Positions 1,977 through 19,513 are shown, counted from the first letter of the stretch. The stretch: DNA of 32,000 nt from Edaphobacter aggregans (GCF_003945235.1 NZ_RSDW01000001.1:4260001-4292000), one strand, 5' to 3'. A program made the numbers and translations. Notes: a model not told the origin generated them from the letters alone.

Positions 1977-2065
1977 AAAAGCACAGCTGTTCCCCTTTGA
2001 TGAGGATGGCGGATCCCTCTTTTTCACTTGGCATCACCTTGACACCAAAACCGCTTTCTTCCAAG

Positions 2066-2188
2066 CATAGAAAAGAGCACTGAGGAGCCGTAGTGGACGA
2101 TTGCGTGTTCCGGTACTGACACGAAGATCGAGGCTAGGCTGCCCCCGATCATCCGAGCCAGCCTTACCTTCGAGGATCTTTTTCGTTG
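2066..2188. repeat. Left arm of composite repeat module, copy A (paired with 17143..17266)
   Basis: By-eye alignment to 17143..17266 is collinear over ~123 nt with roughly three quarters of positions identical, e.g. gcactgaggag, tactgacacgaa, atcgag, ccccgat, cttcgaggat. One minus-strand frame gives a similar peptide in both copies (GKAG..RGQ.SLD.RVS.G.R.R.LRLLSAL). Confidence 0.8.
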
Positions 2189-2214
2189 CTACAACGAGTG
2201 GATGCAATCGCCGG

Positions 2215-2574
2215 TTAAACAGTGCCTCCGAGATTCGATTTTCGGAGCGGCTCGAATGACAACTGCTCCCGAACGGCCTCTGGAATGGTTAGTGAGCGAA
2301 GCAAGTTGGGAGAGATTTTTGCAACTTCCGGCGTTCCAGGACGAAGTCGGGGGAGCTTCGGTGTATTCATTCGCTGGCCGCTTCGAACCTTAGCCCAGTA
2401 CCCTCGTGCAGGAACGGGGACTTGCAGCTTGCGACGCACCTTCGCCAGCGCCACGTCGGAGACGTTGTGGCGTTTCGCGAGAATCGACATGGGCTCTTCC
2501 CATACCTCTTTATAGAGGTGCCGCGGTGAACGGCAATAGATTGCATGGAGTGACAATACAACACAAAACACCAC
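2215..2574 (-). CDS. HTH-like hypothetical protein with LY.EVW..PM....GVSDVALAK..RKL..P.P.RGYWAK motif, probably truncated or frameshifted
   Basis: The translation contains HLYKEVWEEPMSILAKRHNVSDVALAKVRRKLQVPVPARGYWAK. I recognise this as a recurrent N-terminal motif of uncharacterised bacterial proteins but cannot name the family. The real start is probably internal. The ORF stops at 2212-2214 while a second minus frame stays open to 2034 and carries the conserved repeat peptide. Confidence 0.45.
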   Translation of the reverse strand: MVFCVVLSLHAIYCRSPRHLYKEVWEEPMSILAKRHNVSDVALAKVRRKLQVPVPARGYWAKVRSGQRMNTPKLPRLRPGTPEVAKISPNLLRSLTIPEAVREQLSFEPLRKSNLGGTV

Positions 2575-2691
2575 TTCGCGCCTCGAAGGCGGAATCTGAC
2601 GAGGGACTTTGTTGTTGAATTGATCGGATTCGCATCACATTCATTATCAACGACTTACGGATGATGTATTGGCCTGCGATAAACGCTGTTT

Positions 2692-2918
2692 GGCGGGAAT
2701 TTGGCCATATGCGTAAATTCGCTGCGGAGATTCAGCCTTATGGGGGTGCGCCACTTCGGCCTTATGGGGTTTGAGAACCTGCAAGTCATTGAAACAAGAG
2801 CGGGGCAAGTTCAACCTTATGTGCAAACCCACACCCCTGTGGGTTTACGAATAAGGTTGAAGTTGGACCCCATAAGGTTGAAGTCAACACCCCATAAGGC
2901 GAAAGTTCTTATGGGGTG
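2692..2918. repeat. Iteron-like cluster A: four direct copies of TTCArCCTTATG(G/t)G(G/c) plus three inverted copies and one further direct copy
   Basis: Direct cores CC(T/A)TATG start at 2705, 2736, 2760 and 2815. Inverted copies are aataaggttgaa 2850-2862, ccccataaggttgaa 2868-2882 and ccccataaggcgaaa 2890-2904. A further direct copy gttcttatgggg lies at 2905-2916. The perfectly conserved block aagtcattgaaacaa is at 2783-2797. Collinear with 17667..17806. Confidence 0.85.
2825..2846. other. Perfect 9-bp stem / 4-nt loop hairpin directly after iteron 4 (copy A)
   Basis: aaacccaca cccc tgtgggttt; the two arms are exact reverse complements. Confidence 0.7.
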
Positions 2919-3028
2919 TGCGTTTGTCATAACACTATCTTTGGAAATCCTGCCGGGTCCTATCGTTTGGACGATGCAGTAGGCTATCGCGTGGCACGCA
3001 ATGCGTCGCCTTAGATGGACACTTATGC

Positions 3029-3319
3029 TTGTCCCTCGCTGAGAAAACCATCGACGATATGCTGACAGAACTTGGAATCAAGCATCAGAAGGAATCCCCT
3101 TATCCTGAAGGCCGATTCCGATGTGATTTTCTCGTTGGATCAACCTATATTGAATATTTCGGTTTGCGAGGAAACCCAGAATACGATGTCCGCATACAAG
3201 AAAAGCTGGATCTTTGCCAACGGCTTGGTTTGAGCCTGCTTGTCATCTATCCGGAGGACCTTGTTGATAGTGCCGTCCTCCGACATAGACTGCTAGGGAT
3301 TCAGGGAGGGGCCAATTAG
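3029..3319 (+). CDS. small stand-alone restriction-endonuclease-like (PD-(D/E)xK / Vsr-DUF559-like) protein
   Basis: 96-aa ORF. RFRCDFLVGSTYIEYFGL....K..L.....G..LLVIYPEDL resembles the D-x(n)-(I/V)E-x-x-G core of endonuclease-fold domains. TTG start with no clear SD (alternative ATG at 3059). The function call is tentative. Confidence 0.45.
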   Translation: MSLAEKTIDDMLTELGIKHQKESPYPEGRFRCDFLVGSTYIEYFGLRGNPEYDVRIQEKLDLCQRLGLSLLVIYPEDLVDSAVLRHRLLGIQGGAN

Positions 3320-3339
3320 CACTCCTCAATTTCATTCAC

Positions 3340-3519
3340 TCAACTAGACGTGAGGAAGACCGCGGTCGTCCTTAAATTCAGAAAGCGATCTTCCATAATT
3401 TCCGTCATGAACCGCAGGAGCATCCGTTCTATCCATTGAACCCAGCCTTTTAAGGAACTGGTGTCGCGAAATGGTGGCGTCCACGTCTCAGCAGACTCCC
3501 GAAGAACTCTCGATGCCAT
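3340..3519 (-). CDS. 59-aa hypothetical protein, below the track cutoff, possible last gene of the lipase cluster
   Basis: Hand translation gives MASRVLRESAETWTPPFRDTSSLKGWVQWIERMLLRFMTEIMEDRFLNLRTTAVFLTSS*. GGAGGA (rc of 3524-3529) lies 4 nt upstream of the ATG at 3519. The ORF starts 37 nt downstream of the 489-aa gene stop. An imperfect palindrome at 3353-3372 overlaps its 3' end. Confidence 0.4.
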   Translation of the reverse strand: MASRVLRESAETWTPPFRDTSSLKGWVQWIERMLLRFMTEIMEDRFLNLRTTAVFLTSS

Positions 3520-3556
3520 ACAGTCCTCCGTTGATTTGGCGATGTCTTGGCAGTGC

Positions 3557-5026
3557 TTAGTTACTTTTTGGAGGAAAGTAAACCGAGATTACGGCGCCTC
3601 TCGGCTTGAATGGCCATATGCGCGGCTTATAGGGCGTTTCGAATCGAAGTTCGATGTCGGTCCCTGGCACTCTCTTTCGCTGATTGTCGAGGACCATCTC
3701 TACTTGAGTGGTAACTCCACAACCATCTGTCTGAATCCCCGCTTTCTTCAGGGTAACCGAGGTAATCTCGAGTGCGAGTTGACAGTCGTTGCCTCCTTGC
3801 GTCGCGACGACCGTGTCCCGTCTCTTGGTGTATAGAGACTTGTCGAGGCGAAAGGGCTTCGGCTGAGAATCTAAATAGCCGCTGTAGCTCTTCATGTAGT
3901 CGGCATAACTCTTTGAGGTGCTGTTACGCGATAGTGCTACTGCCTGATTCAAAGAGATAACCGGAATCGCTGGTCCTTTTGGGTCCGCTGGATTGGGGAT
4001 GCTGCCAGGAACAGGCCCAAACGATTGGGCGATGCTGTCAACGCTTGCTTGGATTGTTGGAATAAGACGCGGTGGAATGTCCTGGCTGACTCCCTTGGGC
4101 GCAGGTGCGCCAGGCGAAGGAAGCGGTTGAGCGAGCCCATTGGCGATCTGATGAAGATACTGTTCGATCATGCCAGGCTGGCCCCACTTTACGCTGTTCG
4201 TCAGAACGGTGTAGTTCTTTTGTAGAGTTTGCAACGAGACGGATTGGTCCACTATAGTCTGGTTGATCGAGCTGATCTGTTTGGATTGTTGTTGAAATTG
4301 CACATTTAGGGTGGCGGAATCGGTTCTCAAGTCACCGAGTTGATCTCCCTGTCCGGTCACCTGTACGTCTAGGCGGCCTAAATCGGCTCCGAATACGTTC
4401 TGCACTTGGATCTGATGCGCGATGTTGTTGAGCGCGGCAGTAACTTTGTCATTGTTAGCAGGCGACTCCTCCATAGACCCCCCACCAGACACGGAGGGCA
4501 GCAAATGGACCGTAGCTCCGCCCACAAGTAGCGCGGCGAGGATAGAAGCGAGCAGCGTAGCATTACTGTGCTTTCCGCCAGCCGAAATCAAAGCATCCCG
4601 AATTTTGCCCAGGATAGCTGCAATTCTGCCTGCCTGCGAGGATCGAACTCGCATTGGTGGGATGCGCAATTCGTTGAGCGCCTCCTTCAAGATTAAGCCG
4701 AACCGTGGGTCATCGACGGCTTGTGCCCAGACCACGCGACCCGCCACGTATGGCGCAAGTGAGTCTGAATAGCCGGGGCATGAATCCTGAATCGCCTTTG
4801 TGATCTTTGCCTTGCCCATTGGCGTCTTGTACAAGTCGTCGTAGATGCTTACGAGCAACGGGTTTGAGGCGATGGTGTCCATCAGATCGTCGTCCGGTAT
4901 ACGGTCACTGGTCAATTTCTCACTGACCAACGCACGAAAATAGTCGTCCGAGGCGGCCCGGTCGGTCCACGGTCTTACTTCTGATTCCTGGATCTCAGGC
5001 ACGTCTGGCATCAGCGGCTTCCCCAT
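3557..5026 (-). CDS. membrane-anchored coiled-coil / Pro-rich protein (TolA/TonB-like layout), function unknown
   Basis: 489 aa. N-terminal ~150-aa soluble part, one hydrophobic helix (ATLLASILAALLVGGATVHLL), a Q/N/L-rich heptad-like region, a Pro-rich stretch (PLPSPGAPAPKG...PVPGSIPNPADPKGPAIPV) and a C-terminal ~130-aa domain. It overlaps the lipase stop (4995-4997) by 32 nt, or by 17 nt if the ATG at 5011 is used, which is preceded by GGGGAA. Confidence 0.7.
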   Translation of the reverse strand: MGKPLMPDVPEIQESEVRPWTDRAASDDYFRALVSEKLTSDRIPDDDLMDTIASNPLLVSIYDDLYKTPMGKAKITKAIQDSCPGYSDSLAPYVAGRVVWAQAVDDPRFGLILKEALNELRIPPMRVRSSQAGRIAAILGKIRDALISAGGKHSNATLLASILAALLVGGATVHLLPSVSGGGSMEESPANNDKVTAALNNIAHQIQVQNVFGADLGRLDVQVTGQGDQLGDLRTDSATLNVQFQQQSKQISSINQTIVDQSVSLQTLQKNYTVLTNSVKWGQPGMIEQYLHQIANGLAQPLPSPGAPAPKGVSQDIPPRLIPTIQASVDSIAQSFGPVPGSIPNPADPKGPAIPVISLNQAVALSRNSTSKSYADYMKSYSGYLDSQPKPFRLDKSLYTKRRDTVVATQGGNDCQLALEITSVTLKKAGIQTDGCGVTTQVEMVLDNQRKRVPGTDIELRFETPYKPRIWPFKPRGAVISVYFPPKSN

Positions 5027-8000
5027 GAGAGTGGTTCAAGATGATCTCTCGGACATCCTTTCGATTCTGAATCCATTCGGCGGCGGTTCCCTTCCAGCCT
5101 CGTGGCGGAGTTGCAATTGGAATAGGCTGTACTGTACCTGGCTGATCGAGATAGTTCTTTAGGCAGCTCGTTGCCGTTTCGCGACCAAGCAAGCGATAGG
5201 CCTCAAACTGCGATTCATCGAACCATTGGTTGATCGTCGTCTCGTGCGGGAACTGTGCATTATCGCGGTCGAAGCTCTTGACGATAACCGAGCTTGCGCT
5301 TGCGACGGCCGGCTTCAGGTACAAAATGGTTCCCGACGAGCCATCGTTGTACTCGATACTGCCGATCGCGTACGAAGAGCGATTAAACTTCGAGTCGCCG
5401 TAGCTGAGTAGTCCGTCCGTGGGCAACGTAATGTTCGCACCAAAGTTGATTTGACATAGTTCCATGGCGTTGACCAGGTCCTCAAAGCGATAGTGAGGGT
5501 CGCAGTCTGCATCGCATAGAATGATTACTTTGCACTTACGGCGAACCAGCTCAAACAGGCCAAGATTCTCAAAATGGCCGCCATCGGAGAGATAGATGTA
5601 CTCACTCTTATCCGTGGCCTGCGCAAACAGTTCGTCGAGCATCGGCTTGAGTCCTGTCTTAGGACCCTCATCACATCTCGTACTGCGGTTGCGCGGATTG
5701 CCGAGCCACCAACCCAAGCGAACGTTGGCCGCTGTCATCAGTGCTGCAACAGCGGGCGAGGTATGGGCTCCTTCGTTCGGGCTCTGCGCCCCTCCTGAAA
5801 TCGCCATCGCGCTGCCTAGCGTAATGCTGTTCGAACTCTCCTGCGAGTCCGTCAGGGAAAGGGCAGGAGTGCCTTTCGAGGAGCAGAAGTCAGTCTTGAT
5901 CAATCCCGATTTTGCCAAAGGATCGTTCGAATCCAGCTGCTCGTCGGGGGAAGGGTAGCGGATATACCCGCAATAAACAGGCGAGAAAATAAAATTCATT
6001 GCCCGCCGTTTCTGCAAATCCAAGTTCCCGCTCTTGGTCACATTGAGAGTGCAATTGATGATAGGAAATGGTCCGTCAAATTTGTTGGATTCTGCTCGTT
6101 GAAGCGGGTCGACCTTTTCACCCTGATCTTCTTCTTGCTTCGCATCGGCAGTCAGCGATGCCATCGTGATGGTGGGTGCGCCGGTGCCTGCGCTCGCCGC
6201 GAGGTAGCACTCAATCAGGCGAAATCGATACACGTTGTGCAGCGATAGCCGGTTGACGTCGATCATCCGGCCCAACACAACAAGAAGGGCGACGGAGACC
6301 GCCAGAAAGATGTACTCCGGGCGTAGCCATACCTTCAATTGTTGGGGGATATAGCCTTCAACAGTCGCTAACAGCAAGTGGTTCAGGCTTGACAAGAGAA
6401 TTAAGAGTCCTAAGAGGAAGACGTACGGCGCAACGCGCGCCAGGAATCCCATGAACTGGTATTGGTCCCCACTAGGTTTCACCCTAACTATCCATGGTGT
6501 GGGATTGGACTCGGACGGAGCGGGCCCCCCAGTCTTTCCACTGTATGCGCTTAGCACGCCACCCACGGTAGTGAGAATCCAGCCCAAAAGAGCCGTAGCC
6601 CCTGGGAGTTTGTAGCCCCCGCGCAGATTGTATAGGTGCGGACCGACCCGCGCCATGAACTCAGGCCACAACAGTGCGAGCGACGCGACTCCGAGCCAAC
6701 CCAGAGTAAGAATGGCGGTGTCTCCCCATATGCGATTCAGCCACTCCTGTGCAGATGATTGAAAGGGTAAAAGAGCCATGCCTGCTGATGCCATTAACAC
6801 ATATGCCAGAAGCAGCAAAAGCGGAGCGGACGCTGCCGATAACAAGAGACCCGTCTCGAAATGATCGCCCAGGTCAAAGAATCGCGCGAGGAGGAAGGAT
6901 GATGCCCAAAAGCACAGCATGCCGATAATACCTGTACATACGAGCGAGACAATGGGTCTCCACCGATCGCTCGATTGAAGCCTCTTCAGCAGGCCCGGGA
7001 ATGCCCCAACCCGGTACGTAAAAAAGACCACGCATAGAAAAGAGATGAGAAAAAATCCCCACGGAATGGCAGGGTGGTAGCCCGAAACATAGTCAAGGCG
7101 TCGGGCGAGGCCCACTCCAACTACAACCGGCCCGAATAGCAGAACAGCAAAGAAAGTAGTAAAGGCGTGCTTTGCCGCCGCTCGTCGTGAAGCCGTGGCG
7201 TCCTTTGGGTTATAGCCTAACCCTGAGGGGAAAAGCATTATGAATAGTCCCGCTCCAGCGAAGAGTCGGATGCGCCACGCTGTACTAATCCAGTGAGGAT
7301 CCTCAGGAAGTCGCCAACTATAAGACTGAAGGCGACTAGCCTGCTTATCAAGACCATCGGTAAGAGATTTGAGCATCTTCAGGGCCGACCGCGGAAGTGC
7401 CTGAGCATCATCAAGAATCGGTAGGTCAGTGACGATACTCTGCACGACTTCGTTGACAGCTTTCGATTGTCTTTCTTCCGCCGATAGTACCTCTCCACAG
7501 GGTGGAACGTGTGCGGTACCTTCGTGTAGTTGGCCACTGGCAATAGATAGAGGAAACCAGCGGCAAAGATCATTCTTCACGGATTCCAGCGTTGCTACTG
7601 CCTCTGGATTGGGTCTTCCGTTGGAGCCGAGAATCTGCTCGTATCCCTTGCTGATACTGTTTCCGACCTCATTCATTGCGCGTGTTGTCGCTTGGTCCAC
7701 CTTAAGATCCGGAATGCAATCTATATCTGATATCGACTTACAGGCCGCCAGCTCCGCCGAGGTAAGCTTGGCTTTAAGATCGGCAAGAGACGCTTTCACT
7801 ACCCATCCTTCGCCCGGGTAGTAGGGACTCTTGTCTAGAAAGGTTCGCATCTTGTCTTCCAGCACACTGCGGGGCACGTCTGGAGATTGACTCGAACCCG
7901 ATTTCTGTCTTAGCTCAAGCTCGTTTCTCAGAGCCGTCAATGCCGTCTCAACGCTCTGGTCCACATAGAGAGAGGGTTTCGTGCGGAACGCTTCGAGGTG

Positions 8001-8798
8001 ATTGATTTTTTCGAGGAGCAGTTTCTCTTCAGGCGATACTGAATCCGGTTTCATTTGTTTGCTCGATTGTGCGGAGGCCATTGCCGCTTGAAGCTCAAGC
8101 GTCTGTCGGACGACCGCTCCAAACGCATTATCGCGGTCATCATCGAAGGTTCCAGTATGCCCAATACCCTTCAATTCTTCTCCGACATCACGCCGTAGTT
8201 GTAGATTGAGGCTGTTCGCTGCCTTGCGTGCATATTCTCCTGAGGTCATCTTGAAGAGGTCTCGCGCGATATAGGGAGCAACTACCAGGATCAAGGCCAG
8301 GAGGGCGACAAAGAGAAGGTTAGGGAGCAGACGGAGCACATATGCGGCGACTGCCGTCCATACGTCGCTGCTCATCAGACCGCGCTGCGGTGTTAGATAG
8401 CTGCTGTAGCGGCGTAGATGGGTGACGGGAAGCTGATCTCGGTAACGATCTGCTGCATTACCCTGCTTATTCTCGTCGGCCAACGCTTTCGCCACATGGC
8501 CAATTCCATCCTTCCGAATCCATGAAGCAAGCCAAGAATTGATATAACTCCCACCCGATACGGAAGAGATATATCCAATCCGATGTAATAGACCGAAAGA
8601 CGCGAAAGCCTGGAGAACTCCGAGGTTAAAGGTGGCACTACGTATTCCTCCCCCTGAGAAAGCCACGCCAATCGCTCGGTCCGGCGGCGCTTGCGGGTCA
8701 CGCCGTTTACGAACGTTCTCGAACCAGGTTTGCTCTCCAGAGAGCAATATCGACTCGATGGATTTGAGATCCTGCTCCGTACCACCCCGTTCTTCCAT
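4995..8798 (-). CDS. patatin/cPLA2-like phospholipase with a very large membrane-embedded insertion
   Basis: 1267 aa. Motifs: FSGGGIRS (G49-G-G-x-R53), SVSGGS (Ser81 codon 8556-8558) and LSDGGHFENLG (Asp1072 codon 5583-5585). About 10 hydrophobic 20-30-aa segments and a ~320-aa charged helical region lie between them. GGAG lies 9 nt upstream of the ATG at 8798. Confidence 0.88.
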   Translation of the reverse strand: MEERGGTEQDLKSIESILLSGEQTWFENVRKRRDPQAPPDRAIGVAFSGGGIRSATFNLGVLQAFASFGLLHRIGYISSVSGGSYINSWLASWIRKDGIGHVAKALADENKQGNAADRYRDQLPVTHLRRYSSYLTPQRGLMSSDVWTAVAAYVLRLLPNLLFVALLALILVVAPYIARDLFKMTSGEYARKAANSLNLQLRRDVGEELKGIGHTGTFDDDRDNAFGAVVRQTLELQAAMASAQSSKQMKPDSVSPEEKLLLEKINHLEAFRTKPSLYVDQSVETALTALRNELELRQKSGSSQSPDVPRSVLEDKMRTFLDKSPYYPGEGWVVKASLADLKAKLTSAELAACKSISDIDCIPDLKVDQATTRAMNEVGNSISKGYEQILGSNGRPNPEAVATLESVKNDLCRWFPLSIASGQLHEGTAHVPPCGEVLSAEERQSKAVNEVVQSIVTDLPILDDAQALPRSALKMLKSLTDGLDKQASRLQSYSWRLPEDPHWISTAWRIRLFAGAGLFIMLFPSGLGYNPKDATASRRAAAKHAFTTFFAVLLFGPVVVGVGLARRLDYVSGYHPAIPWGFFLISFLCVVFFTYRVGAFPGLLKRLQSSDRWRPIVSLVCTGIIGMLCFWASSFLLARFFDLGDHFETGLLLSAASAPLLLLLAYVLMASAGMALLPFQSSAQEWLNRIWGDTAILTLGWLGVASLALLWPEFMARVGPHLYNLRGGYKLPGATALLGWILTTVGGVLSAYSGKTGGPAPSESNPTPWIVRVKPSGDQYQFMGFLARVAPYVFLLGLLILLSSLNHLLLATVEGYIPQQLKVWLRPEYIFLAVSVALLVVLGRMIDVNRLSLHNVYRFRLIECYLAASAGTGAPTITMASLTADAKQEEDQGEKVDPLQRAESNKFDGPFPIINCTLNVTKSGNLDLQKRRAMNFIFSPVYCGYIRYPSPDEQLDSNDPLAKSGLIKTDFCSSKGTPALSLTDSQESSNSITLGSAMAISGGAQSPNEGAHTSPAVAALMTAANVRLGWWLGNPRNRSTRCDEGPKTGLKPMLDELFAQATDKSEYIYLSDGGHFENLGLFELVRRKCKVIILCDADCDPHYRFEDLVNAMELCQINFGANITLPTDGLLSYGDSKFNRSSYAIGSIEYNDGSSGTILYLKPAVASASSVIVKSFDRDNAQFPHETTINQWFDESQFEAYRLLGRETATSCLKNYLDQPGTVQPIPIATPPRGWKGTAAEWIQNRKDVREIILNHSHGEAADARRA

Positions 8799-9177
8799 AG
8801 TTGATTACTCCGTATATTTCTGCATTCCTATTCGCCGCTGGCAGCTTCAGACATGCCTTATCGTCGTCACTGCCCTCCATGATCTTCTGGCACTTTCCAC
8901 TGCGAGGCGGGTACTCGCCGAAAGGACATAGGGCGTCCGGGGTAGCCCAGTAGGAAGCGCTCATGGAGCTACGCGGGCCCAAATGGGCTATCTTCCCACC
9001 AAGGTAAAGAATCACAGGAAACAACATGCCAATGATGACGACGGTGAAAACGAAGCCGAAAGTATGTTCCTTGGATCTGATCTGAGACTGGACGTGGGAC
9101 GATAGTTCGCCTCCTGGGATAAGAGCGCGGCCCACTTCTGCTGAGTTCCGGAAATGGGAACACCTCTCTTGTGTCAA
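8707..9177 (-). CDS. possible small single-pass membrane protein
   Basis: 156-aa ORF with a TTG start and no clear SD. One hydrophobic helix (FGFVFTVVIIGMLFPVILYLGG). The last 92 nt overlap the well-supported lipase start in another frame, so this call is uncertain. Confidence 0.3.
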   Translation of the reverse strand: MTQERCSHFRNSAEVGRALIPGGELSSHVQSQIRSKEHTFGFVFTVVIIGMLFPVILYLGGKIAHLGPRSSMSASYWATPDALCPFGEYPPRSGKCQKIMEGSDDDKACLKLPAANRNAEIYGVINYGRTGWYGAGSQIHRVDIALWRANLVRERS

Positions 9178-9226
9178 CGTAGCTCGGCGTTCACGGCAAC
9201 ACCGCTAGGCGTCACTCTTCGTTGGG

Positions 9227-10852: not shown

Positions 10853-10920
10853 AAACGACCTCACTGGAATGGGTTTAAGACCGTGGGCTGTGAGCATTTG
10901 AGCGCATGGGGTGGACGCTA

Positions 10921-11277
10921 CTAAGCGCCTAAGATGTTGGGGCTCCAGATAGCCAAACCGCCAAAAAATTCGATATCACCTTCGAGTTCAAGCGGCGGCT
11001 TACCTACCGCACTTGGCGGCTGCTGGGCAGTCGCAAATCCATCCGTAGAGTTAGGCGAAAACAGAGTAATCTGCAGAAGATTGTTGCCAGCCAGGATGGT
11101 CAGATCAAATGTTTTCCCATCAACTTTGATCGGGACTGGGATTGGTCCGTTAGCGTTCGTTCCGTATAGCACGCTGACGATGCTGATGACGGTTGTTGGA
11201 TCATCGGGGACGATTTCGATCGTCTCGACTTTCCCTGTTGTGCTTTGCAGGTCACCTGGGACTTGCTGGAGTGCCAT
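10921..11277 (-). CDS. 118-aa beta-rich hypothetical protein, first gene of the lipase cluster
   Basis: GGAGAAAG lies 6 nt upstream of the ATG at 11277. No signal peptide and no recognised motif. The plus-strand ORF 10934..11293 is its shadow. Confidence 0.55.
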   Translation of the reverse strand: MALQQVPGDLQSTTGKVETIEIVPDDPTTVISIVSVLYGTNANGPIPVPIKVDGKTFDLTILAGNNLLQITLFSPNSTDGFATAQQPPSAVGKPPLELEGDIEFFGGLAIWSPNILGA

Positions 11278-11904
11278 GGCTTTCTCCGATTGAAATTACT
11301 CTGCTTGAAAATAGGGTTGTAAGAATTTGAGACGCAATCCGGAAAAAGGGAGGAGTACTCGGTCTAATATGACGACCTAGTCCGCGTGGGCACATAAGGT
11401 GATCACAATGAGCTTCACGTTTCTCCGTAAATCCGAAGTCCCAAATCAATGGCGATGCATTTGCTGTCTGTCAAACAAGAGAACGAGGCAAACGAGGCAT
11501 TTCCTTTTGTAAAAAAAAAGAAAAAGTGTGGAACATTCCTAGTGTCTGCAAAAACTGTTCGATCACCTTCGGAGTGGGTAGCTACTGTGGTGGGGTCCAG
11601 CCGCCGTGAGTATTTATTGGTTTGCCATCCTCAACGAAAAATCGCTCGGCTACTAAGCCGACGTCCCAATAGTGCGAGCGGCAGTTCCTTCACTTGACAC
11701 CGTTGCAGTGCAAATTACGGTGCTCCTGGTTATCGACAATCCTTCATCTGCTAAGCGAAGGCCGCTTACTTGATACCGGAGAGGTGCGATGGGCCGGAGA
11801 AATCAACCGAGCTTGAGCGCTGGCAAACCTGCGTAAACCAAAAAAATTAGCCACAAATGAGGCCACTCGTCCTACAATGATTTCGTCAACCACTAAGCAA
11901 TCGA

Positions 11905-12552
11905 ATGACCACGAACCCGCTCGCTGCTGCAGAGATCGTCAAAGCATGCTTGGAGTCCGAGAATGAGACGCCGTGGACGACATTCGTTCAGTATTTCCAG
12001 CCTCTGATTGCGTCTAGTGTCTCCCGCGTTCTCCGACGCTACGGTCACGCGAACCCGTCTTTGGCCGATGACCTAATCCAAGAGACCTATCTTCGCCTTT
12101 GCAGAGATAATTGCCGAGTCCTCCGGGACTTTCAGGCGAAGCATGACGAAGCCATCTTTGGCTATATCAAGGTCATCGCCACATCAGTTGCGCTAGATCA
12201 CTTTCGCGCCCGCGCCACTCACAAGCGCCGGGGCGAAGTCGAAGACGACGGCACAAATCTCGAAGGCAGCACAGCTTCTTCCACCATTGAGCAAAGCTTG
12301 CTTCTCAAAGAACTCGATCGACGTCTGGCATCCACTGAGAATGAACGCGACCGTACGATTTTCTGGCTCTACTACCGTCAAGGTTATACCGCACGAGACA
12401 TTGCAGCGGTTCCCCAATTTAGGCTCACGCAAAAGGGTGTCGAAAGCTGTATCTACCGCCTCACACAATCTCTCCGCGATGCTGTCAGCAGTAAAGGTCC
12501 GGGTTTTACAAAAGGATTGCCGCCTCAAAATACGTTAGGAGTCATGAAATGA
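11905..12552 (+). CDS. ECF-type sigma-70 family RNA polymerase sigma factor
   Basis: 215 aa. Region 2-like DDLIQETYLRLCRD and region 4 HTH-like YRQGYTARDIAAV...LTQKGVESCIYRLTQSLR. Stop TGA 12550-12552 overlaps the next ATG (ATGA). Confidence 0.85.
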   Translation: MTTNPLAAAEIVKACLESENETPWTTFVQYFQPLIASSVSRVLRRYGHANPSLADDLIQETYLRLCRDNCRVLRDFQAKHDEAIFGYIKVIATSVALDHFRARATHKRRGEVEDDGTNLEGSTASSTIEQSLLLKELDRRLASTENERDRTIFWLYYRQGYTARDIAAVPQFRLTQKGVESCIYRLTQSLRDAVSSKGPGFTKGLPPQNTLGVMK

Positions 12553-15500
12553 GACCGCTGGAAGATCACCTCAGCCCGCAGGAGCTGGCTAGTCTTCCGG
12601 AATCACCGGAGGCTCTTGTATCTGTCGAGCAACAGGAGTCGACACGACATATCCAGCAGTGCGAAGCGTGCCACAACCTGGCGATGACTTACTGGAAGCT
12701 CCGGAGTCTCCACATAACGACTGGGGTTGTTGTCAGTAGCGACACCTGCCCTATTGAAAGCATTTGGCTCGAGTTAGCTGCGGGCTTTCGCTCTGAGCAA
12801 TCGCTGTCTCTACTGGCCCACGCAGCAAGTTGTAGCGTCTGTTCAACCCTTCTGCGAGAAGCAATGGACCTCATACAGTTTGACCAACTCGACGCATCGG
12901 GCGAAGCAGGGGAACTTATAGAAAATCTCTCCAGTGACAGGCCCGAATGGCAACATCGTATCGCCGAGCAGATGATGGTGGCCTCAGGCGCATCCCCTGC
13001 AGCAAAAGGCATCCGGGCGAAGCCCGCCACCGGCGTTCCAAGACTCAATTTTATTCATCGCCTACGCCATAGATCAGTGTGGATAACTCTGCCTGCAGCC
13101 GCTTTCGTACTCGGCGTTGTCGTCATGACTGGCGTCGCACTTTGGCGCACAATGCGCCCTTCAGAGGCCCGTTTGCTTGCGATCGCCTACAATAAGCAGC
13201 GGACAATGGTCTTGCGCATCCCGGGCGCCGATCCCGTTCCCCTTGCCTCGGGTACCCGTGGCTCCATGACGGGTCTCACCGACCCCACCGAGTTACTCGA
13301 ACTTCGGCTCCGCGCCCAAAAGCACCTCGATCAGACTCCCAACAGTTCCTATTGGCACCAGATCATGGGCGAGACTCAACTCCTCCAACAGGACGGCACT
13401 GCCGCCCGCCGCAGCTTCGAAATTGCCGAGACAACCAGTGAAAATCTTCCCGATCTCCGGCTGGACCTGGCGGCCGCCTGGTTTGAGATCGGAGATAAGA
13501 CTGGATCTGCCGAGGCCTACGCGGAAGCCGCGGAGCTTTATAGCAGGCTGCTTCGAGAAAAGCCCACAGACCCCGCACTCCTCTACTACAACCGCGCCCT
13601 TAGCTGGGAGCGTCAAAATCTAACTGAGAATGCCCTTGATGACCTTCGCGCGGCGCTACCCCTAGAGCGCTCGGCCGCCTGGCGCAAAGTGATCGAAGCG
13701 GAGATCGCCCGTCTTTCCGCGCAATCCTCCACAGTGACTACCGACGGTTACGAGATCTCACTCAACGTGGCCACGGAAAACCTTCTGCCTCATTGGAGCA
13801 ATTCCCCCGAAGCCCGAGCCAAGATCTCACAGACCGCCGCTCTCGGCCTCAGCCACCACGACCGTTGGCTATTCGACTGGATCGCCGCCAACCATTCCCC
13901 TATTAGTTTAGAAGCGGACTATCATCTCGCCGCGGCAGTTGCCTATGGTGAAGCCGGGGAAGCCGAATCATCTCTTACTGAAGCCCGCCGCGCAATTGAA
14001 CTTTACACAAGAGCCAACGAACATCCCGGGCTCCTCCGAGCCCAATTTGCCGAAATCTATGCCTTCCAACGGCTTGGGCGGGCGAAAGAATGCCTTCAAA
14101 GCATCGCAATCGTTAAGCCGAAAGCAGCTCTCAACAACTATGCATGGCTTCAATCGCAACTCTTCGTGGAACTAGGGGACTGTGAGGGACACATAGGCAA
14201 GTTTGAAGCAACTCAAGAGGATCTAGAACGCGCTCTTGCACTCAGTAAAGTCTTCGATCTACCTCTAATACGCTTGCGAGCTCTTAGCGCGGAGGCTTCG
14301 TTTCTTGACCTCCGCGGAATGACAACCTCTGCTTGGAGGCTTGATTCAATTGGACTACTACTATGCAGACAACTCGGATGTCCTCCCCTCCGGAGGTATG
14401 AGTTTATGTACAACATGGTTATGACTGCGGAGCGCCTTGAGTTGCCATTCGTCGCTGGGGATATCATGCGAACTGGAGCCCATCTCGCAGCGTTATTTCA
14501 AGACGCAACTGAGCATGCCTACGCATTGGAAACTCTGGGAACCGTTATTGGACAAGCTGGCGAGTACACGGAATCGACTCAAGCATTCACTCAGGCCCTC
14601 GCTATCGCTCGCGCTGGTAAACAAGGACCGATGTCCCCCCTTTATCAAGCCGACTGGCAAATAGATCGAGCTGAGATTCTCTCGCGCCAAGGAGCCCCCA
14701 AGGCAGCTTTGCGCCTACTCGAGCAAAATGGGCCAATTCTTCTCGCAAGTGATTATCAGCCCGCTCGCCTTCACTACCTGACCCAACTGGCGTCCGTAGA
14801 CCGGTCTCTTGGACACACAAACGAGGCGCTAACCAATAGTTGGATGGCTGTTCGCGAGGCCGAGCACTCTCTGGGCTCACTGCATACGACTACGGAACGT
14901 GAACAGTGGTCTCAGCAAAACAAAAAGGCATATGCCGAACTTGTCCGATGCTATCTCCAACTCGGAGAAGACACTGAAGCACTTCGAGCCTGGGAACGCT
15001 TTCGAAGCGCACCTTATATTTCAACGTCAACGGCAAACCTAATGAGAAGTTCGTCGAAGTCTACTTCGCCGAACACTATGGTGCTTGTTCTGGCTCGCAT
15101 TGATGACTCGTATATTGGCTGGATCGCCGTAGCTCATCCTCTCCGTGTTGTGCGAACAATATCACTCGGTGAGGGACCAAGATTACAGCAAATGGCAACG
15201 ATTTTCATTCGCCTTTGCTCTGATCCTAACTCCAATCTTAATGATGTCAAGGTCGTTGGTTCGCATCTGTATTCTTCTCTCCTCCAGCCATTAGGAATTC
15301 CACTAAACATCCCAAATCATCTTTGGATAGACGTAGATCCGAGTCTGGGAGCGATTCCCTTTTCTGCTCTCCTCCTTCCGAGTGGAGATTGGCTAGGTTC
15401 GTACTCCCAGATTAGCGTCCTACCAGCATGGTGGGTCCTTCATCCTGCAACCTCGTTTGAGGAACCCACTTTCACGTTTAACACGCACATGGTTGTTGCT

Positions 15501-16064
15501 AGCGGATTCGGTGCACATGAGTCTCTACAATCCCCGGTTGGCAGCTCAGAAGCGGCGGAGATCGCTCGGTTCTTCCCAGGAGCAACGCTGATAGACGGAC
15601 CCTCCGCCAACACTCAGGTGGTACTGCAGTCCATGAAGTCTGGCGACATCTTTCACTTTAGTGGTCATGCAACAAGTGAATCTGGTACACAACTTCTCTT
15701 GGGCTCATCAGATGGAGAGCGCCCTAACACTCTTACTGCCGGATCGATCGAATCGATCCACCTGCGCCACTGTAAGGTGGCAGTCCTTGCCGCATGCAAT
15801 ACGAACGCAGCAAATTCCGACCAAATTGAAAACTCCTCTGATCTCCGCAACGCGTTCCTTATCGCCGGAGCAAACTCAGTTGTCGCTAGTAACTGGGATG
15901 TTGACGACAAGAGCACCCATATTTTGATGATGGCCTTTTACAACCAGCTCGTTATCGGAGTTACCCCCGCTCAATCACTTCAAACCGCACAGCAGTCTTT
16001 GCGGAATGGATCAACCTGGCAACATCCCTATTACTGGGCCTCATTCGAGATCTTTACCAACTAA
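12549..16064 (+). CDS. anti-sigma (HxxxCxxC zinc motif) - TM - TPR - CHAT (caspase-like protease) fusion protein
   Basis: 1171 aa. AGGAG at 12537-12541 lies 7 nt upstream. HIQQCEAC (12648-12671) and HAASCSVC (12819-12842) both fit the ZAS HxxxCxxC pattern. TM helix VWITLPAAAFVLGVVVMTGVALW at ~13075-13146. Long helical repeat (TPR-like) region. C-terminal IFHFSGHA (His codon 15666-15668) and VAVLAACNT (Cys codon 15795-15797) match the CHAT His/Cys dyad context. Confidence 0.85.
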   Translation: MRPLEDHLSPQELASLPESPEALVSVEQQESTRHIQQCEACHNLAMTYWKLRSLHITTGVVVSSDTCPIESIWLELAAGFRSEQSLSLLAHAASCSVCSTLLREAMDLIQFDQLDASGEAGELIENLSSDRPEWQHRIAEQMMVASGASPAAKGIRAKPATGVPRLNFIHRLRHRSVWITLPAAAFVLGVVVMTGVALWRTMRPSEARLLAIAYNKQRTMVLRIPGADPVPLASGTRGSMTGLTDPTELLELRLRAQKHLDQTPNSSYWHQIMGETQLLQQDGTAARRSFEIAETTSENLPDLRLDLAAAWFEIGDKTGSAEAYAEAAELYSRLLREKPTDPALLYYNRALSWERQNLTENALDDLRAALPLERSAAWRKVIEAEIARLSAQSSTVTTDGYEISLNVATENLLPHWSNSPEARAKISQTAALGLSHHDRWLFDWIAANHSPISLEADYHLAAAVAYGEAGEAESSLTEARRAIELYTRANEHPGLLRAQFAEIYAFQRLGRAKECLQSIAIVKPKAALNNYAWLQSQLFVELGDCEGHIGKFEATQEDLERALALSKVFDLPLIRLRALSAEASFLDLRGMTTSAWRLDSIGLLLCRQLGCPPLRRYEFMYNMVMTAERLELPFVAGDIMRTGAHLAALFQDATEHAYALETLGTVIGQAGEYTESTQAFTQALAIARAGKQGPMSPLYQADWQIDRAEILSRQGAPKAALRLLEQNGPILLASDYQPARLHYLTQLASVDRSLGHTNEALTNSWMAVREAEHSLGSLHTTTEREQWSQQNKKAYAELVRCYLQLGEDTEALRAWERFRSAPYISTSTANLMRSSSKSTSPNTMVLVLARIDDSYIGWIAVAHPLRVVRTISLGEGPRLQQMATIFIRLCSDPNSNLNDVKVVGSHLYSSLLQPLGIPLNIPNHLWIDVDPSLGAIPFSALLLPSGDWLGSYSQISVLPAWWVLHPATSFEEPTFTFNTHMVVASGFGAHESLQSPVGSSEAAEIARFFPGATLIDGPSANTQVVLQSMKSGDIFHFSGHATSESGTQLLLGSSDGERPNTLTAGSIESIHLRHCKVAVLAACNTNAANSDQIENSSDLRNAFLIAGANSVVASNWDVDDKSTHILMMAFYNQLVIGVTPAQSLQTAQQSLRNGSTWQHPYYWASFEIFTN

Positions 16065-16082
16065 ATCCTATATTGGAGAACA

Positions 16083-17096
16083 ATGCACATGCATTACTCG
16101 CGTCGCTCAATTTTGCGCAAAGCTGCCCTTGTATCAGCCGCCGGTGTAGCCTACACTAATCCGCTTATTCTCCTTGCCCAGAGTCCGGCAAAACGAGCAG
16201 CATCTACTCCCCCTCCTCCGTTTCAACCAGGAATTCGTATTTTCTTTTCGGGGTCTTGGCTCTTCTGTTCAGAGAATAATAACCCGGGCTGGATGAGAGC
16301 GATCGCTCAGGACATGCCGCGAGTTCCACATACCTTTGCCTATGGTGTGTGGACGCCTGGTTGGAATGACGCAACCACAAAGTCACTACACTCGAACTCA
16401 AATCCAAGTGGTGGCCAACCGGGCATCATTCCACATAAGGTCAAGGTGTCCGTGGGCTCCAAGCCTTTCGGGTCAAGCTTTACTACTGTCAATGACCTGT
16501 TTGCTTATACTGCCTGCACAGACCCTTTTACATACCTGCCAAGCAAAGATATAAAGTACTCCGTTGACTTCAACGCACGTAATCTTCGGGTCATCTCTGT
16601 TCCTATTCCATCAAGTATCATTCCGGCTGCCTTCCTCAGATCCGCATCGATTAGGAACCCTCAAAAGCTTCTTTATACGTTGCCTCAAGGGTGCGTGTTG
16701 TCCCAGTCTGGAGTCGCGACAACGCATATCTTTGACTACCCTGCAGCAACTTCCCTGACCCTCACGCTAAACACTGGTACCGCCGACACTGCGAGCCAGC
16801 AGGATCATTATCACTTTCACACAACTGCGATCTCAGACACACCGTTCGACCACGCTCCGATGATGTTCGATAATCTGCTGGGCCTCATTAGAGGCTTCGA
16901 CCAGAACAACCTAGGATTGCTCAACCCCAATCCAGAATCTATTGACATAGGAGACAACGTCCCAGCGAGTGTTTCGGGGGACGAATTGGAGATTACCTCT
17001 GCTGGTGCCTCAGCTACCAAACCCAAGGAAGTTACCTATTCGACTCACGCAAGACTCGCTACCTGCGCGGGGGGAGCCCTCGCGCTGGGCGATTGA
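16083..17096 (+). CDS. Tat-signal exported protein, function unknown
   Basis: 337 aa. The N-terminus MHMHYSRRSILRKAALVSAAGVAY fits the twin-arginine S-R-R-x-(F/I)-L-K pattern. GGAG at 16075-16078. Starts 18 nt after the CHAT gene stop. Confidence 0.7.
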   Translation: MHMHYSRRSILRKAALVSAAGVAYTNPLILLAQSPAKRAASTPPPPFQPGIRIFFSGSWLFCSENNNPGWMRAIAQDMPRVPHTFAYGVWTPGWNDATTKSLHSNSNPSGGQPGIIPHKVKVSVGSKPFGSSFTTVNDLFAYTACTDPFTYLPSKDIKYSVDFNARNLRVISVPIPSSIIPAAFLRSASIRNPQKLLYTLPQGCVLSQSGVATTHIFDYPAATSLTLTLNTGTADTASQQDHYHFHTTAISDTPFDHAPMMFDNLLGLIRGFDQNNLGLLNPNPESIDIGDNVPASVSGDELEITSAGASATKPKEVTYSTHARLATCAGGALALGD

Positions 17097-17142
17097 TGCT
17101 GAGGGCATCGGGCATTGATTCCCTAACGGCGTTCTTCAAAGG

Positions 17143-17266
17143 CGTAGAAAGCGCACTGAGGAGTCGGAGTGCCCGATCGCGAACTCCGATACTGACACGA
17201 ATATCGAGACTAAGCTGTCCCCGATAATTCCAGCCAGCTTTGCCCTTCGAGGATATTTTTTAGTTG
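17143..17266. repeat. Left arm of composite repeat module, copy B (paired with 2066..2188)
   Basis: See 2066..2188: collinear, roughly three quarters identical by eye, with one small indel near gaagg(g)(c)aa(a)gctgg. Confidence 0.8.
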
Positions 17267-17269
17267 TCA

Positions 17270-17710
17270 TCAGATCTTCCGGATCTCCTGTGCTTTTTGT
17301 TCAGACGTTAGCTTAGAGCGGATCTTTGCCGAACTGATCTTGTTCCTCCCGTTCCCTAAACGGTAGAAGTAGTTCGCACGGTTGCAAAGCCTCGCCGCCG
17401 CATCGTACCGAGGGAGAGCAATTGGCAGTCGCTTCCTCATTTGAGACGGTTCTGCGTTACTAATCGTGCTAGTAGCACGGTTCCAGCAAATGTCTGCGTC
17501 TAGCTCCTTCAAAAAGGAAGTCCCAATTTCCTTCAGCTTTAACCGTGGGAGTCGACACCCTTCGTTGGAGAGGTGCTGCCTGCTCCGTCGACTGGAAACG
17601 AGCTTTCGAGAGTCTCCCGAGAACAGGCTTTGTATGTCGTAAGCGCGACGAACTTTGTCTCGGTTTGGCGAAAGTTCAGCCTTATGTGTAAATTCACGGC
17701 GGAACTTCAA
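17270..17710 (-). CDS. doubtful ORF in the variable centre of repeat module B
   Basis: 146-aa ORF. Its first ~15 codons are encoded by the iteron cluster, so any real start would be internal. Basic, low-complexity composition. It ends ...AKIRSKLTSEQKAQEIRKI. No similarity seen to the ORF at the same place in module A. Confidence 0.25.
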   Translation of the reverse strand: MKFRREFTHKAELSPNRDKVRRAYDIQSLFSGDSRKLVSSRRSRQHLSNEGCRLPRLKLKEIGTSFLKELDADICWNRATSTISNAEPSQMRKRLPIALPRYDAAARLCNRANYFYRLGNGRNKISSAKIRSKLTSEQKAQEIRKI

Positions 17711-17806
17711 GCTTATGGGGATGTTCCAGTTCAGCCTTATGGGGTATCAGATGCCGTAAGTCATTGAAACAAATCCGGCTGAAATTCCGCCTTATGCGTA
17801 AACTCA
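17667..17806. repeat. Iteron-like cluster B: four direct copies of TTCArCCTTATG(G/t)G
   Basis: Cores (C/G)CTTATG start at 17680, 17711, 17735 and 17790, the same 31/24/55-nt spacing as cluster A. The identical 15-nt block aagtcattgaaacaa is at 17758-17772, 23 nt after core 3 as in A. Confidence 0.85.
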
Positions 17807-17808
17807 CA

Positions 17809-17836
17809 AAGGGTCGGAGCTTAGGCTTCGACCCTT
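17809..17836. other. 12-bp stem (one G-T wobble) / 4-nt loop hairpin after iteron 4 (copy B)
   Basis: aagggtcggagc ttag gcttcgaccctt. It sits at a position analogous to the hairpin in module A but has an unrelated sequence. Confidence 0.65.
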
Positions 17837-19187: not shown

Positions 19188-19474
19188 AGGAGCTATTGAG
19201 CCTAAATAGAAAGCTCAAAGCTTCCAATGAGAGCTGCCCTGAACTCATCGTTGTTGACGCAACGACTCAACAATCAGCTAGTAAACGCCGAAGAGATCGG
19301 CCTGCGACATTGGGTTGAGTATAGGGAGCGGTGGCCCACATCTAACGAGCCACAAAATCGGGTGCCCCATCTTCGCGCGGTTTTATCGTGCCAAGGTGGA
19401 TTCATTCGAGCAAAGCTCGAACCGCCTTGCTTAAGGGCACGGCTTCAGCCGTGTCGCAACAGTAACGAGAGATA

Positions 19475-19497: not shown

Positions 19498-19513
19498 GTT
19501 TTACAATCGCCGA

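Follow-up and report, generated by a model that had tools for sequence, protein, structure and literature searches.

Features of the locus

The window analysed here, a 32,000-nucleotide stretch of Edaphobacter aggregans DNA, carries two composite repeat modules, A and B, each consisting of a left arm, a centre and a right arm. Two architectures are distinguished among the related ends discussed below, namely compact ends, with repeats 18, 39-40 and 61 nt from the terminus, and spaced ends, with repeats 18, 73, 96-97 and 127-128 nt from it. The features, with positions counted from the first nucleotide of the window, are as follows.

1..2833, plus strand: putative element E1 (partial), running off the window start; spaced terminus ...AAACCCACA at 2833, from the external-only profile and the terminal pattern
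4-669 and 666-1976, plus strand: E1 operon, function unknown
2049..2183, no strand assigned: left arm A, a noncoding conserved block starting 73 nt past the operon stop codon
2215..2490, minus strand: centre ORF A, an uncharacterised small protein of 91 aa that starts MSIL...
2686..2833, plus strand: right arm A, spaced four-repeat end of E1, its terminal CACA ending at 2833
2834..2837, no strand assigned: 4-nt spacer CCCC, read from the sequence, separating the abutted ends of E1 and E2
2838..2912, minus strand: compact end of E2 with three repeats, oriented opposite to the right arms and beginning 5'-TGTGGGTTTACGAATAAGGTTGAAG
2838..17808, plus strand: putative element E2, 14,971 bp, with asymmetric inverted TGT...ACA termini
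3029-3319: E2 cargo, 96-aa PD-(D/E)xK-like ORF
3557-11277, minus strand: E2 cargo, operon with a patatin-like lipase
11905-17096, plus strand: E2 cargo, ECF sigma / CHAT / 337-aa operon
17125..17260, no strand assigned: left arm B, starting 29 nt past the stop codon of the 337-aa gene
17270..17710, minus strand: centre ORF B, up to 146 aa, start uncertain, overlapping the right arm
17662..17808, plus strand: right arm B, spaced four-repeat end of E2, its terminal CACA ending at 17808
17809..17836, plus strand: perfect 12-bp hairpin directly outside the E2 terminus

The ORFs of the E1 operon gave zero matches in Pfam, NCBIfam or PADLOC, and family searches returned no match for centre ORF A or centre ORF B. 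A hypothetical protein of Edaphobacter aggregans matches centre ORF A at 100% identity, and this ORF has just four homologues, all weak, among 5.8 billion proteins. GC content is 0.50-0.55 across the E2 island versus a higher 0.60-0.66 at 24-30 kb.

Conserved arms, unrelated centres and fixed repeat spacing

The earlier note had described two modules with paired arms around a centre that differs completely between the copies, and a blastn comparison of module A against the window recovers this arrangement. The left arms (2049-2183 versus 17125-17260) share 80.3% identity over 137 nt (E 8.5e-28), the right arms (2688-2833 versus 17663-17808) share 75.3% identity over 146 nt (E 5.4e-24), and the centres between them gave no match. 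Both arm pairs are thus confirmed as far above chance. The modules begin 29-73 nt beyond the stops of the plus-strand operons at 1976 and 17096, as had been reported, and the minus-strand ORF noticed in each centre is present in both, although the two ORFs show no significant similarity to each other (BLASTP E 0.16).

The right arms are terminal regions of ~147 bp, each holding four ~20-bp direct repeats at fixed positions (consensus ACTTCAGCCTTATGnGGTA) and ending in ...AAACYCACA-3', in agreement with the four iteron-like repeats of the earlier note. In module A, repeat cores of the form CTTATG(B)G start at 2706 (degenerate, CATATG), 2737, 2761 and 2816; those of module B start at 17681, 17712, 17736 and 17791, so that the core-to-core spacing is 31, 24 and 55 nt in both. 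Whereas 3.6 occurrences of the motif YTTATGBG would be expected in the window, there are 12, of which 10 fall inside the module or end regions. A TTGAAA motif is conserved between repeats 3 and 4.

Three points required revision. Right arm B stops at 17808 and not at 17806, and module A, drawn earlier as 2034-2918, takes in a second, inverted end at 2838-2912, which had not been split off from the right arm. The nuclease-like genes that were said to follow each module (3029-3319 and 17988-19187) are mutually unrelated, one lying within the 15-kb element and the other outside it.

The modules as probable ends of two neighbouring elements

Profiles built from foreign copies alone identify three ends in the window. 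Right arm A matches the profile of 19 foreign spaced ends over its full length (nhmmer, E 4.9e-28), with repeats 18, 73 and 97 (and, degenerate, 128) nt from the terminus, which are the family positions; right arm B matches the same external profile at E 2.8e-32, with repeats 128, 97, 73 and 18 nt from its terminus. The inverted block at 2838-2912 matches the profile of 19 foreign compact ends (nhmmer, E 5e-21) and is 86% identical to nrdJ-adjacent ends of Tunturiibacter, Granulicella and an Acidobacteriaceae MAG; the compact block of the partner end, with three of the same repeats, starts 5'-TGTGGGTTTAC. Beyond 2686-2833, 17662-17808 and the inverted 2838-2912, the external end profiles found no match in the window. 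The three termini read ...CCCACA at 2833, TGTGGG at 2838 and ...CTCACA at 17808, and a 28-nt inverted repeat (2806-2833 / 2838-2865) was found at the first junction independently of the terminal pattern search.

The inverted compact end at 2838-2912 and right arm B therefore delimit one putative mobile unit, E2, at 2838-17808. At the level of sequence comparison, these ends show module A to close the upstream neighbour E1 and not to form the left boundary of the 15-kb segment. The earlier proposal that the modules mark the boundaries of a mobile segment was accordingly right in kind but not in geometry, each right arm being the same spaced distal end of a different element. We consider it moderately probable that the modules are the distal end regions of two related mobile islands inserted in tandem, head to tail.

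A family of related ends in soil Acidobacteria

In all, 76 distinct related ends were found, in Acidobacteriaceae genomes and in soil or peat metagenomes. The terminal pattern gave 12 hits in species-representative genomes, 10 of them in Acidobacteriaceae, and 70 loci in metagenomes; all 76 ends finish in CACA, but the search pattern demanded CACA. Across genera, the terminal ~25 nt and the repeat spacing are constant while everything in between varies, and spaced ends contain about 150-200 nt of conserved noncoding sequence. Many ends, 26 of them "unclassified", have just one or two recognisable repeats (L007 has one). The earlier note had named as a refutation a ubiquitous dispersed motif with no bearing on segment boundaries, and this applies by half, since the right-arm motif is indeed widespread but always sits at an element boundary.

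The two kinds of end occupy different positions. Fourteen of the 76 ends, all compact or unclassified, lie 23-31 nt past the stop codon of nrdJ, a ribonucleotide reductase gene, versus none of the 28 spaced ends at that distance, and the C-terminus encoded by nrdJ at these ends (...CGSTSGCS*) is maintained through synonymous changes. What faces a spaced end is either a hairpin or the next element's compact end. Nine of the 28 abut an inverted terminus across a spacer of 1-7 nt (4 nt in the window), and the outer flanks of 20 non-abutted spaced ends fold at -12.7 kcal/mol versus -9.3 kcal/mol for random 45-mers (p 0.006). The hairpin outside E2 (dG -21.9 kcal/mol, z -6.4) probably represents the target gene's terminator in a displaced position.

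No two copies of the family carry the same cargo, which near the ends is diverse and often defensive, with type I R-M, patatin, AIPR/Z1/Dcm, BrxL, SMODS, PLD and HipA represented. Ordinary metabolic genes are found beside some ends.

Target-site duplications gave a mixed picture. The flanks of E2 (ACCCC versus AAGGG) do not match and hence hold no target-site duplication; one complete foreign element (L041:2328-9036) is flanked by GCAAG and GCATG, a four-in-five match as expected for a 5-bp duplication. A 5-bp duplication with some positional wobble would fit the junction spacers, which range over 1-7 nt and in several cases measure 5 nt.

Search for mobility genes

Pfam searches of all large ORFs in the window found no transposase domain, and no integrase was present there. 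Nor did Pfam detect any domain of the rve, Mu-transposase, TnsA, AAA or TniQ families recurring among the ORFs of related loci, of which more than 150 were searched, one survey of these loci covering the best 25 of 109 families, outside which a single occurrence could lie. Queries with Tn7 TnsA-E gave nothing significant among 2,529 ORFs of the window and the related loci (phmmer), and TnsA/B/C/TniQ/tnsD or any other recurrent recombinase was absent from the window and about 470 kb of related loci. Tyrosine integrases were found in two related loci only, at L073:7805-8740 and at L048:3060-3716; the L048 gene lies about 260 nt inward from a spaced end. Since neither E1, E2 nor the related loci encode such transposition proteins, the machinery would act in trans or be of an unrecognised type.

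The left arm

The left arm appears to be a noncoding block in its own right, specific to the lineage and placed where cargo meets end module. It has no reading frame open in both copies and was rejected as a known structured RNA family, Rfam covariance models giving no match at gathering thresholds and chance-level hits only at E up to 1. Folding the pair together gave three to four compensatory pairs (RNAalifold), and a putative terminator hairpin, missed by the terminator scan, is good in copy A and weak in copy B. At a guess, the block could serve as a structured transcript end or insulator for the incoming cargo operon.

For the left arm only, one could also think of an intergenic repeat dispersed in this genome, either REP/MITE-like or a common terminator module, of which the block would be a copy that lies near both ends by chance and is no part of a transposon; we regard this as doubtful. 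Such an origin would agree with its absence from all 83 related loci and from the metagenome pattern scan, with its terminator-like position directly behind operon stop codons, and with the identities, since left arms that are 80% alike, next to right arms that are 75% identical to each other versus 76-78% to foreign ends, fit a host-specific sequence. However, just two copies occur in 32 kb, a third convincing copy is absent from the window (30297-30333 being a 37-nt chance-level match, E 0.34), and each copy sits 400-500 nt inward of a spaced end, from which a minus-strand ORF separates it.

Alternative explanations for the ends

The absence of a transposase from all ORFs searched, the missing target duplication at E2, the many ends reduced to one or two recognisable repeats and the metabolic genes adjoining some ends would also suit non-transposing fossils of an old Tn7-like invasion, with homologous recombination through nrdJ and the conserved ends reshuffling the arrays and passing them from strain to strain, and the modules being scars. 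Remnant Tn7-like insertions behind nrdB are reported in Acinetobacter (PMC11014353) and lend this a precedent. We nevertheless regard it as unlikely, because the constancy of the terminal ~25 nt and of the repeat spacing across genera is hard to explain without selection on end function, and the conserved noncoding sequence of the spaced ends likewise argues against it.

An integrase origin, in which the ends are att sites of tyrosine (or serine) recombinase islands, the repeats arm-type sites and the abutted ends attP-like hybrids arising by tandem integration at the nrdJ 3' end, is decidedly improbable. In its favour, insertion targets the 3' end of a conserved gene, accretion in tandem is typical of such islands, two related loci carry tyrosine integrases, and E2 lacks a flanking target duplication. 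Against this, the window and the remaining related loci have no integrase, the two junctions of an element share no direct-repeat core, most loci have no core-like half site in the nrdJ-side flanks, and the termini are inverted and always TGT/ACA. Tyrosine and serine recombinases, moreover, have a fixed overlap region of 6-8 bp, whereas the spacer of abutted termini varies from 1 to 7 nt. The integrase gene beside one att site and the direct-repeat core at both junctions that mark tyrosine-recombinase islands were not seen in the window, and the junction sequences are inverted.

If the modules were duplicated regulatory regions, the repeats would be operators or iterons bound by a regulator, perhaps the small centre ORF product, that controls the downstream plus-strand gene or a replication origin. 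This is very improbable despite the helical-scale spacing of the direct repeats, the divergent small ORF and the conserved TTGAAA. Across many genera the repeat blocks have neighbours that are unrelated, and in every case they finish in CACA at a junction; the centre ORFs are mutually unrelated and do not recur at other loci; the genes downstream bear no relation to each other, one of them lying across an element boundary; and neither a sigma-70-like promoter nor a Rep gene was found. The suggestion of duplicated regulatory units in the earlier note is thus unsupported. An iteron-regulated replication origin was rejected as well, since neither module has a Rep-like domain nearby and many chromosomal loci carry the repeats at element junctions.

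Comparison with known mobile elements

Tn7-family elements have TGT/ACA termini with TnsB-binding repeats (PMC11014353), insert just outside conserved genes including nrdB and nrdD (PMC11014353; bioRxiv 10.1101/2025.07.27.667033) and carry large, variable cargo with many defence genes (PMC8649781). Mini-elements with Tn7 ends alone transpose once the proteins are supplied, and target immunity has been described, by which a resident element blocks a second insertion nearby (PMC11014353).

Judged by its sequence, the architecture of the present family resembles that of Tn7. Shared with Tn7 and Tn7-like elements (Tn6022, Tn6230 and the CRISPR-associated Tn6677) are the inverted 5'-TGT...ACA-3' termini, the ~20-bp direct repeats arranged as one compact and one spaced end, the compact end beside the target gene, the large, variable, defence-rich cargo and the orientation-specific insertion outside the 3' end of a conserved gene (about 25-30 nt in Tn7-like elements, 23-31 nt from nrdJ here). 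The right end of Tn6677 (TGTTGATAC..., with repeats of CACCCATAAATTGATA) has a similar layout to the present ends. The differences are that tnsA, tnsB, tnsC, tniQ and tnsD are missing from the window and the ~470 kb of related loci, that elements often stand head to tail with spacers of 1-7 nt, at odds with target immunity (E1|E2 in the window itself), that nrdJ is not among the targets named in the cited Tn7-family literature, and that, where a 5-bp duplication would be expected, the flanks differ at E2 and agree at four of five bases in one foreign element.

Other systems share fewer of these traits. Members of the Tn5053/Tn402 family, like phage Mu, are DDE elements whose TG...CA termini and several transposase-binding repeats per end recall the ends described here; they differ in carrying tniA/tniB or MuA/MuB and in targeting res sites or random sites, not the downstream side of one gene. 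Integrase-driven tandem islands at one att site have in common with this family the insertion at a conserved gene's 3' end, tandem arrays and diverse defence cargo, but possess direct-repeat cores and an integrase beside att, whereas the present ends are inverted, a core repeat was not seen and integrases are sporadic. Trans-mobilised derivatives of the mini-Tn7 or MITE-like type have intact ends and lack transposition genes, as do the present copies; unlike these derivatives, every sampled copy here has no gene for transposition, measures 7-15 kb or more and has unique cargo, and the copies are not short deletion derivatives of one master element.

A model for array formation

We propose that a DDE transposase of the Tn7/Mu type would bind the repeats, which are predicted transposase-binding sites, pair the unlike ends and cut at the CA-3' termini. 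A target selector may read the nrdJ 3' end and thereby place the element between stop codon and terminator in a single orientation, and further insertions would shift older elements outward to produce head-to-tail arrays, with the transposition proteins supplied in trans or of an unrecognised type. The window begins inside E1, and its array would be located behind nrdJ. Cassette exchange, put forward in the earlier note, may describe how tandem arrays come to hold cargo that is different each time. The islands would then represent a family common in soil Acidobacteria that, while lacking a recognisable transposase, combines Tn7-like ends with varied accessory and defence cargo.

Paired arms around unrelated centres

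Comparison of module A (2034-2918) with the whole window returned two significant direct matches, both to module B (17143-17836), and no other of weight: the left arms (2049-2183 against 17125-17260) are 80.3% identical over 137 nt (E 8.5e-28), and the right arms (2688-2833 against 17663-17808) are 75.3% identical over 146 nt (E 5.4e-24). From one module to the other, the 400-500 nt that separate the arms show no alignment, and the minus-strand ORFs of the centres (A, 2215-2490; B, 17270-17710) share no significant similarity (BLASTP E 0.16). Each right arm holds four copies of a motif with the core CTTATG(B)G, at gaps of 31, 24 and 55 nt that are the same in both, and the window contains 12 instances of YTTATGBG where 3.6 would be expected, 10 of them inside these repeat regions. 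The self-comparison suggested in the earlier note thus bears out what had been described there by eye, namely a two-arm direct repeat with a differing centre and, in each right arm, four iteron-like repeats, now with identical spacing between modules.

The right arms are termini of a mobile-element family

Both right arms stop at a common sequence, ...AAACCCACA at 2833 and ...AAACTCACA at 17808, and from 2838, four bases past the former, an inverted copy of this terminal sequence (TGTGGGTTTACGAATAAGGTTGAAG) begins, followed by two more inverted repeats. DDE transposons of the Tn7/Mu type end in repeated ~20-bp sites in direct orientation that run up to a TGT/ACA terminus. A search with TTCNNCCTTATNNGNAAACYCACA, a degenerate pattern covering the terminal 24 nt, gave 12 matches in a one-genome-per-species set of bacteria and archaea, 10 of them in Acidobacteriaceae (Granulicella, Edaphobacter, Tunturiibacter and MAGs), and 70 metagenome loci from soil, peat and bog; the ends had no match in the plasmid collection. 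Two fixed architectures were recognized, a compact end with three repeats starting 18, 39-40 and 61 nt off the terminus and a spaced end with four starting 18, 73, 96-97 and 127-128 nt off it. The right arms are of the spaced type and 2838-2912 is compact, and profile HMMs of the ends, trained on foreign copies exclusively, recovered these three sites and no other in the window:

Element ends in the window and their E-values with the foreign-copy profile HMMs
2686-2833, spaced end, right arm A, E 4.9e-28
17662-17808, spaced end, right arm B, E 2.8e-32
2838-2912, minus strand, compact end, E 5e-21

We are highly confident that the right arms represent the termini of a mobile-element family.

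Geometry and cargo of the two elements

As the repeats mark the inner side of an end, 2838-17808 constitutes one element, E2, of 14,971 bp, whose ends are inverted and unlike (compact at 2838, spaced at 17808). Module A forms the far end of a separate element, E1, whose body extends beyond the window start; it is the head-to-tail arrangement of E1 and E2 that places the modules in direct orientation. The earlier proposal of a mobile segment boundary was therefore right in kind and wrong in geometry, the segment being bounded at 2838 and 17808 by the inverted ends; the modules do not bracket one segment in the sense meant, since module A closes E1 and not E2.

Cargo of E2
ORF of 96 aa, PD-(D/E)xK-like
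Minus-strand operon, including a 1,267-aa patatin-like protein
Plus-strand operon, ECF-sigma / CHAT / 337-aa protein

GC content is 0.50-0.55 over 1-19 kb against 0.60-0.66 near the Lhr helicase gene (25-29.5 kb). The flanks of E2 differ (ACCCC against AAGGG), without target duplication; in the corresponding comparison for one complete foreign element, the flanks agree at 4/5. The sole cargo homologue found among the related loci (L-numbers, each with its own coordinates) is a 1,095-aa patatin-like protein, L034:1821-5105, 32-38% identical to window 4995-8798 and likewise within an array of these elements.

Just beyond E2 lies a 399-aa gene (17988-19187) with a GC content of 0.45, far under its surroundings, which matches phage family phrog_30194 of unknown function (E 5e-74); foreign DNA may therefore lie to the right of the element as well. 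Farther right is a gene for an IS200-like Y1 transposase (19514-19954, PF01797), flanked by nested hairpin-forming inverted repeats (19431-19457 / 19976-20002), of which the inner pair (19475-19497 / 19939-19961) is 100% complementary, and by a 54-nt direct repeat (19386-19439 / 20030-20083, 81%). The region 19386-20083 has the appearance of a REP-associated tyrosine transposase accompanied by its REP sequences. A 160-aa minus-strand ORF (20046-20528) has only a LacI-type HTH and a coiled-coil tail and, lacking a sugar-binding domain, may be a truncated regulator.

The left arm and the centre ORFs

The left arm lies 400-500 nt inward of the spaced end and begins 73 nt (copy A) or 29 nt (copy B) past the stop codon of a cargo operon, the two operons being unrelated. 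A coding function was ruled out, no frame being open in both copies; the sole shared frame has ~4 synonymous against ~11 non-synonymous codon differences by hand count, and a 44-aa ORF in the arm retrieved nothing in a protein-database search. The arm had no match in Rfam, and scans for tRNA, tmRNA or Rfam RNAs found nothing in the window or either module. Further copies were absent from 83 related loci (blastn), from the metagenome pattern scan (0) and from plasmids (blastn), and the single viral-scan match was at chance level within a DUF5131-like gene. The conserved internal blocks seen at other loci bear no relation to the arm; one of them resembles, by eye, a transposase-gene fragment.

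Folding the two copies together predicts two hairpins that show 3-4 compensatory changes. The 3' hairpin, which would end in a U-run and have the outer stem AAGAUC/GAUCUU in copy A and AAUAUC/GAUAUU in copy B, is strong in copy A only, and the intrinsic-terminator scan did not call the arm. Right arms A and B are mutually no closer than to foreign ends, yet the left arms are 80% alike, and the left arm may thus be an element specific to the host or lineage; as judged from two copies only, terminator or insulator, small RNA, recombination site and dispersed repeat are all candidates. The centre ORFs encode orphan small proteins; that of centre ORF A is on record as a protein of Edaphobacter aggregans, and its homologues occur in unrelated contexts without these ends.

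Association with nrdJ and tandem junctions

Of the 76 distinct ends, 14 are situated 3' of nrdJ, which encodes a class II ribonucleotide reductase, at 23-31 nt (mostly 26-28) from its stop codon, an adjacency known from related loci, the window itself beginning within E1. All 14 are compact or unclassified, spaced ends accounting for 0/28, and the nrdJ C-terminus ...CGSTSGCS* is kept via synonymous changes at these loci. Nine of 28 spaced ends face another element's compact end across a spacer of 1-7 nt (CCCC in the window), and the remainder face unique sequence, frequently with a hairpin at its start. The outer 45-mers of these non-abutted spaced ends fold at -12.7 against -9.3 kcal/mol for random windows (p 0.006), and a perfect 12-bp hairpin lies directly past 17808 (dG -21.9, z -6.4). 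Most simply, elements would insert in a single orientation behind the nrdJ stop codon and ahead of the nrdJ terminator, and repeated insertion would give arrays. The genes adjacent to the ends are unlike at every locus and frequently concern defence (type I R-M, patatin, AIPR/Z1/Dcm, BrxL, SMODS, PLD and HipA-like genes being examples).

At two loci (L056:11797-11868, L065:1852-1923), compact-type termini are paired in the same orientation 48 nt apart, and the compact end there appears duplicated or nested. Short terminus-like fragments located after the nrdJ stop codon and before the element, two copies of TGTGGGTT at L004:832-862 and AACCCACA plus a 2-nt spacer at L007:5411-5436, may be footprints left by earlier insertions.

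Islands behind compact ends

A ~450-580-aa protein family (cluster 2, ~500 aa), abundant in Acidobacteriaceae with >220 homologues, is encoded immediately inside the compact end, reading outward, at nine loci.

Members of the ~500-aa family
L017:327-1961
L061:9464-11062
L065:273-1796
L073:4269-5528
L087:10001-11734
L089:10001-11602

The family has no match in Pfam, PHROG or PDB, and its C-terminus resembles DUF3631 by eye. A short tandem motif, GAGGTTATGGAGGTTATGGAGG, lies near the stop codon of the gene, just within compact ends (L003, L006, L007, L087:11733-11760, L089:11605-11635). Upstream of the gene, a conserved four-gene operon (L087:1323-4054, L089:5604-8314) includes a putative Rad52-like annealase and a putative Cas4-like nuclease with four C-terminal cysteines, as read from their sequences; Pfam assigns the latter to PDDEXK_1. 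These two islands also hold PIN/Phd toxin-antitoxin pairs and an AbiEii gene, and contain no integrase, transposase or other recombinase. Their Rad52-like, PDDEXK_1, toxin-antitoxin and ~500-aa genes have no counterpart in the window. An Lhr helicase gene lies at L089:18049-21602 on a Terracidiphilus contig, ~6 kb downstream of an island with a decayed compact end, and at 25050-29483 in the window, ~7 kb downstream of E2, which may reflect a common neighbourhood or coincidence.

Relation to Tn7 and implications

The family shares with Tn7-like elements TGT...ACA termini, asymmetric ends with multiple repeats, a compact end adjoining a conserved gene at a constant short distance beyond the coding sequence, and cargo rich in defence genes, and differs in its frequent tandem insertion, opposite to Tn7 target immunity. 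The ribonucleotide reductase genes nrdB and nrdD are already known Tn7-family targets (10.1101/2025.07.27.667033; PMC11014353; PMC8649781). By Pfam, the window has no domain of the rve, Mu-transposase, TnsA, TnsC-type AAA or TniQ families, and the matches listed for >150 ORFs of related loci include no recurrent one; phmmer with TnsA-E of the Tn7 element of plasmid R721 against 2,529 ORFs found nothing significant, and tyrosine integrases occur at two related loci only. Because the anatomy is Tn7-like but the defining proteins are missing, these elements are filed as working like a Tn7-type element and not as a proven member, and we place moderate confidence in a DDE/Tn7-like mechanism. Either a transposase acts in trans, or it has escaped recognition, or it has been lost, in which case the ends would be fossils. 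In all, this looks like a variant of Tn7-type elements not described before, which lacks a transposase, forms tandem arrays and targets nrdJ in Acidobacteriaceae.

A more specific proposal, speculative and rather unlikely in its entirety, is an Acidobacteriaceae cassette-accretion system with Tn7-type ends and no element-encoded transposition genes. Large defence or accessory cassettes, each with one compact and one spaced end, would enter serially between nrdJ and its terminator, ignoring target immunity, by machinery acting in trans that might be host-encoded, belong to a rare master element or represent a yet-unrecognised protein type; the left arm would be a lineage-specific cis element (RNA or protein-binding site) insulating or regulating the end.

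The end profiles provide a simple tool to delimit accessory islands in the annotation of Acidobacteriaceae genomes. If the elements are active, nrdJ would be a new target site for Tn7-type elements, and cargo-only units stacking in tandem would represent a new Tn7-type lifestyle and a hotspot of defence islands within a major phylum of soil bacteria. This raises the questions of what protein binds the ends in recognition and by what means target immunity is circumvented, and both bear on defence-island assembly and on engineered site-specific DNA insertion.
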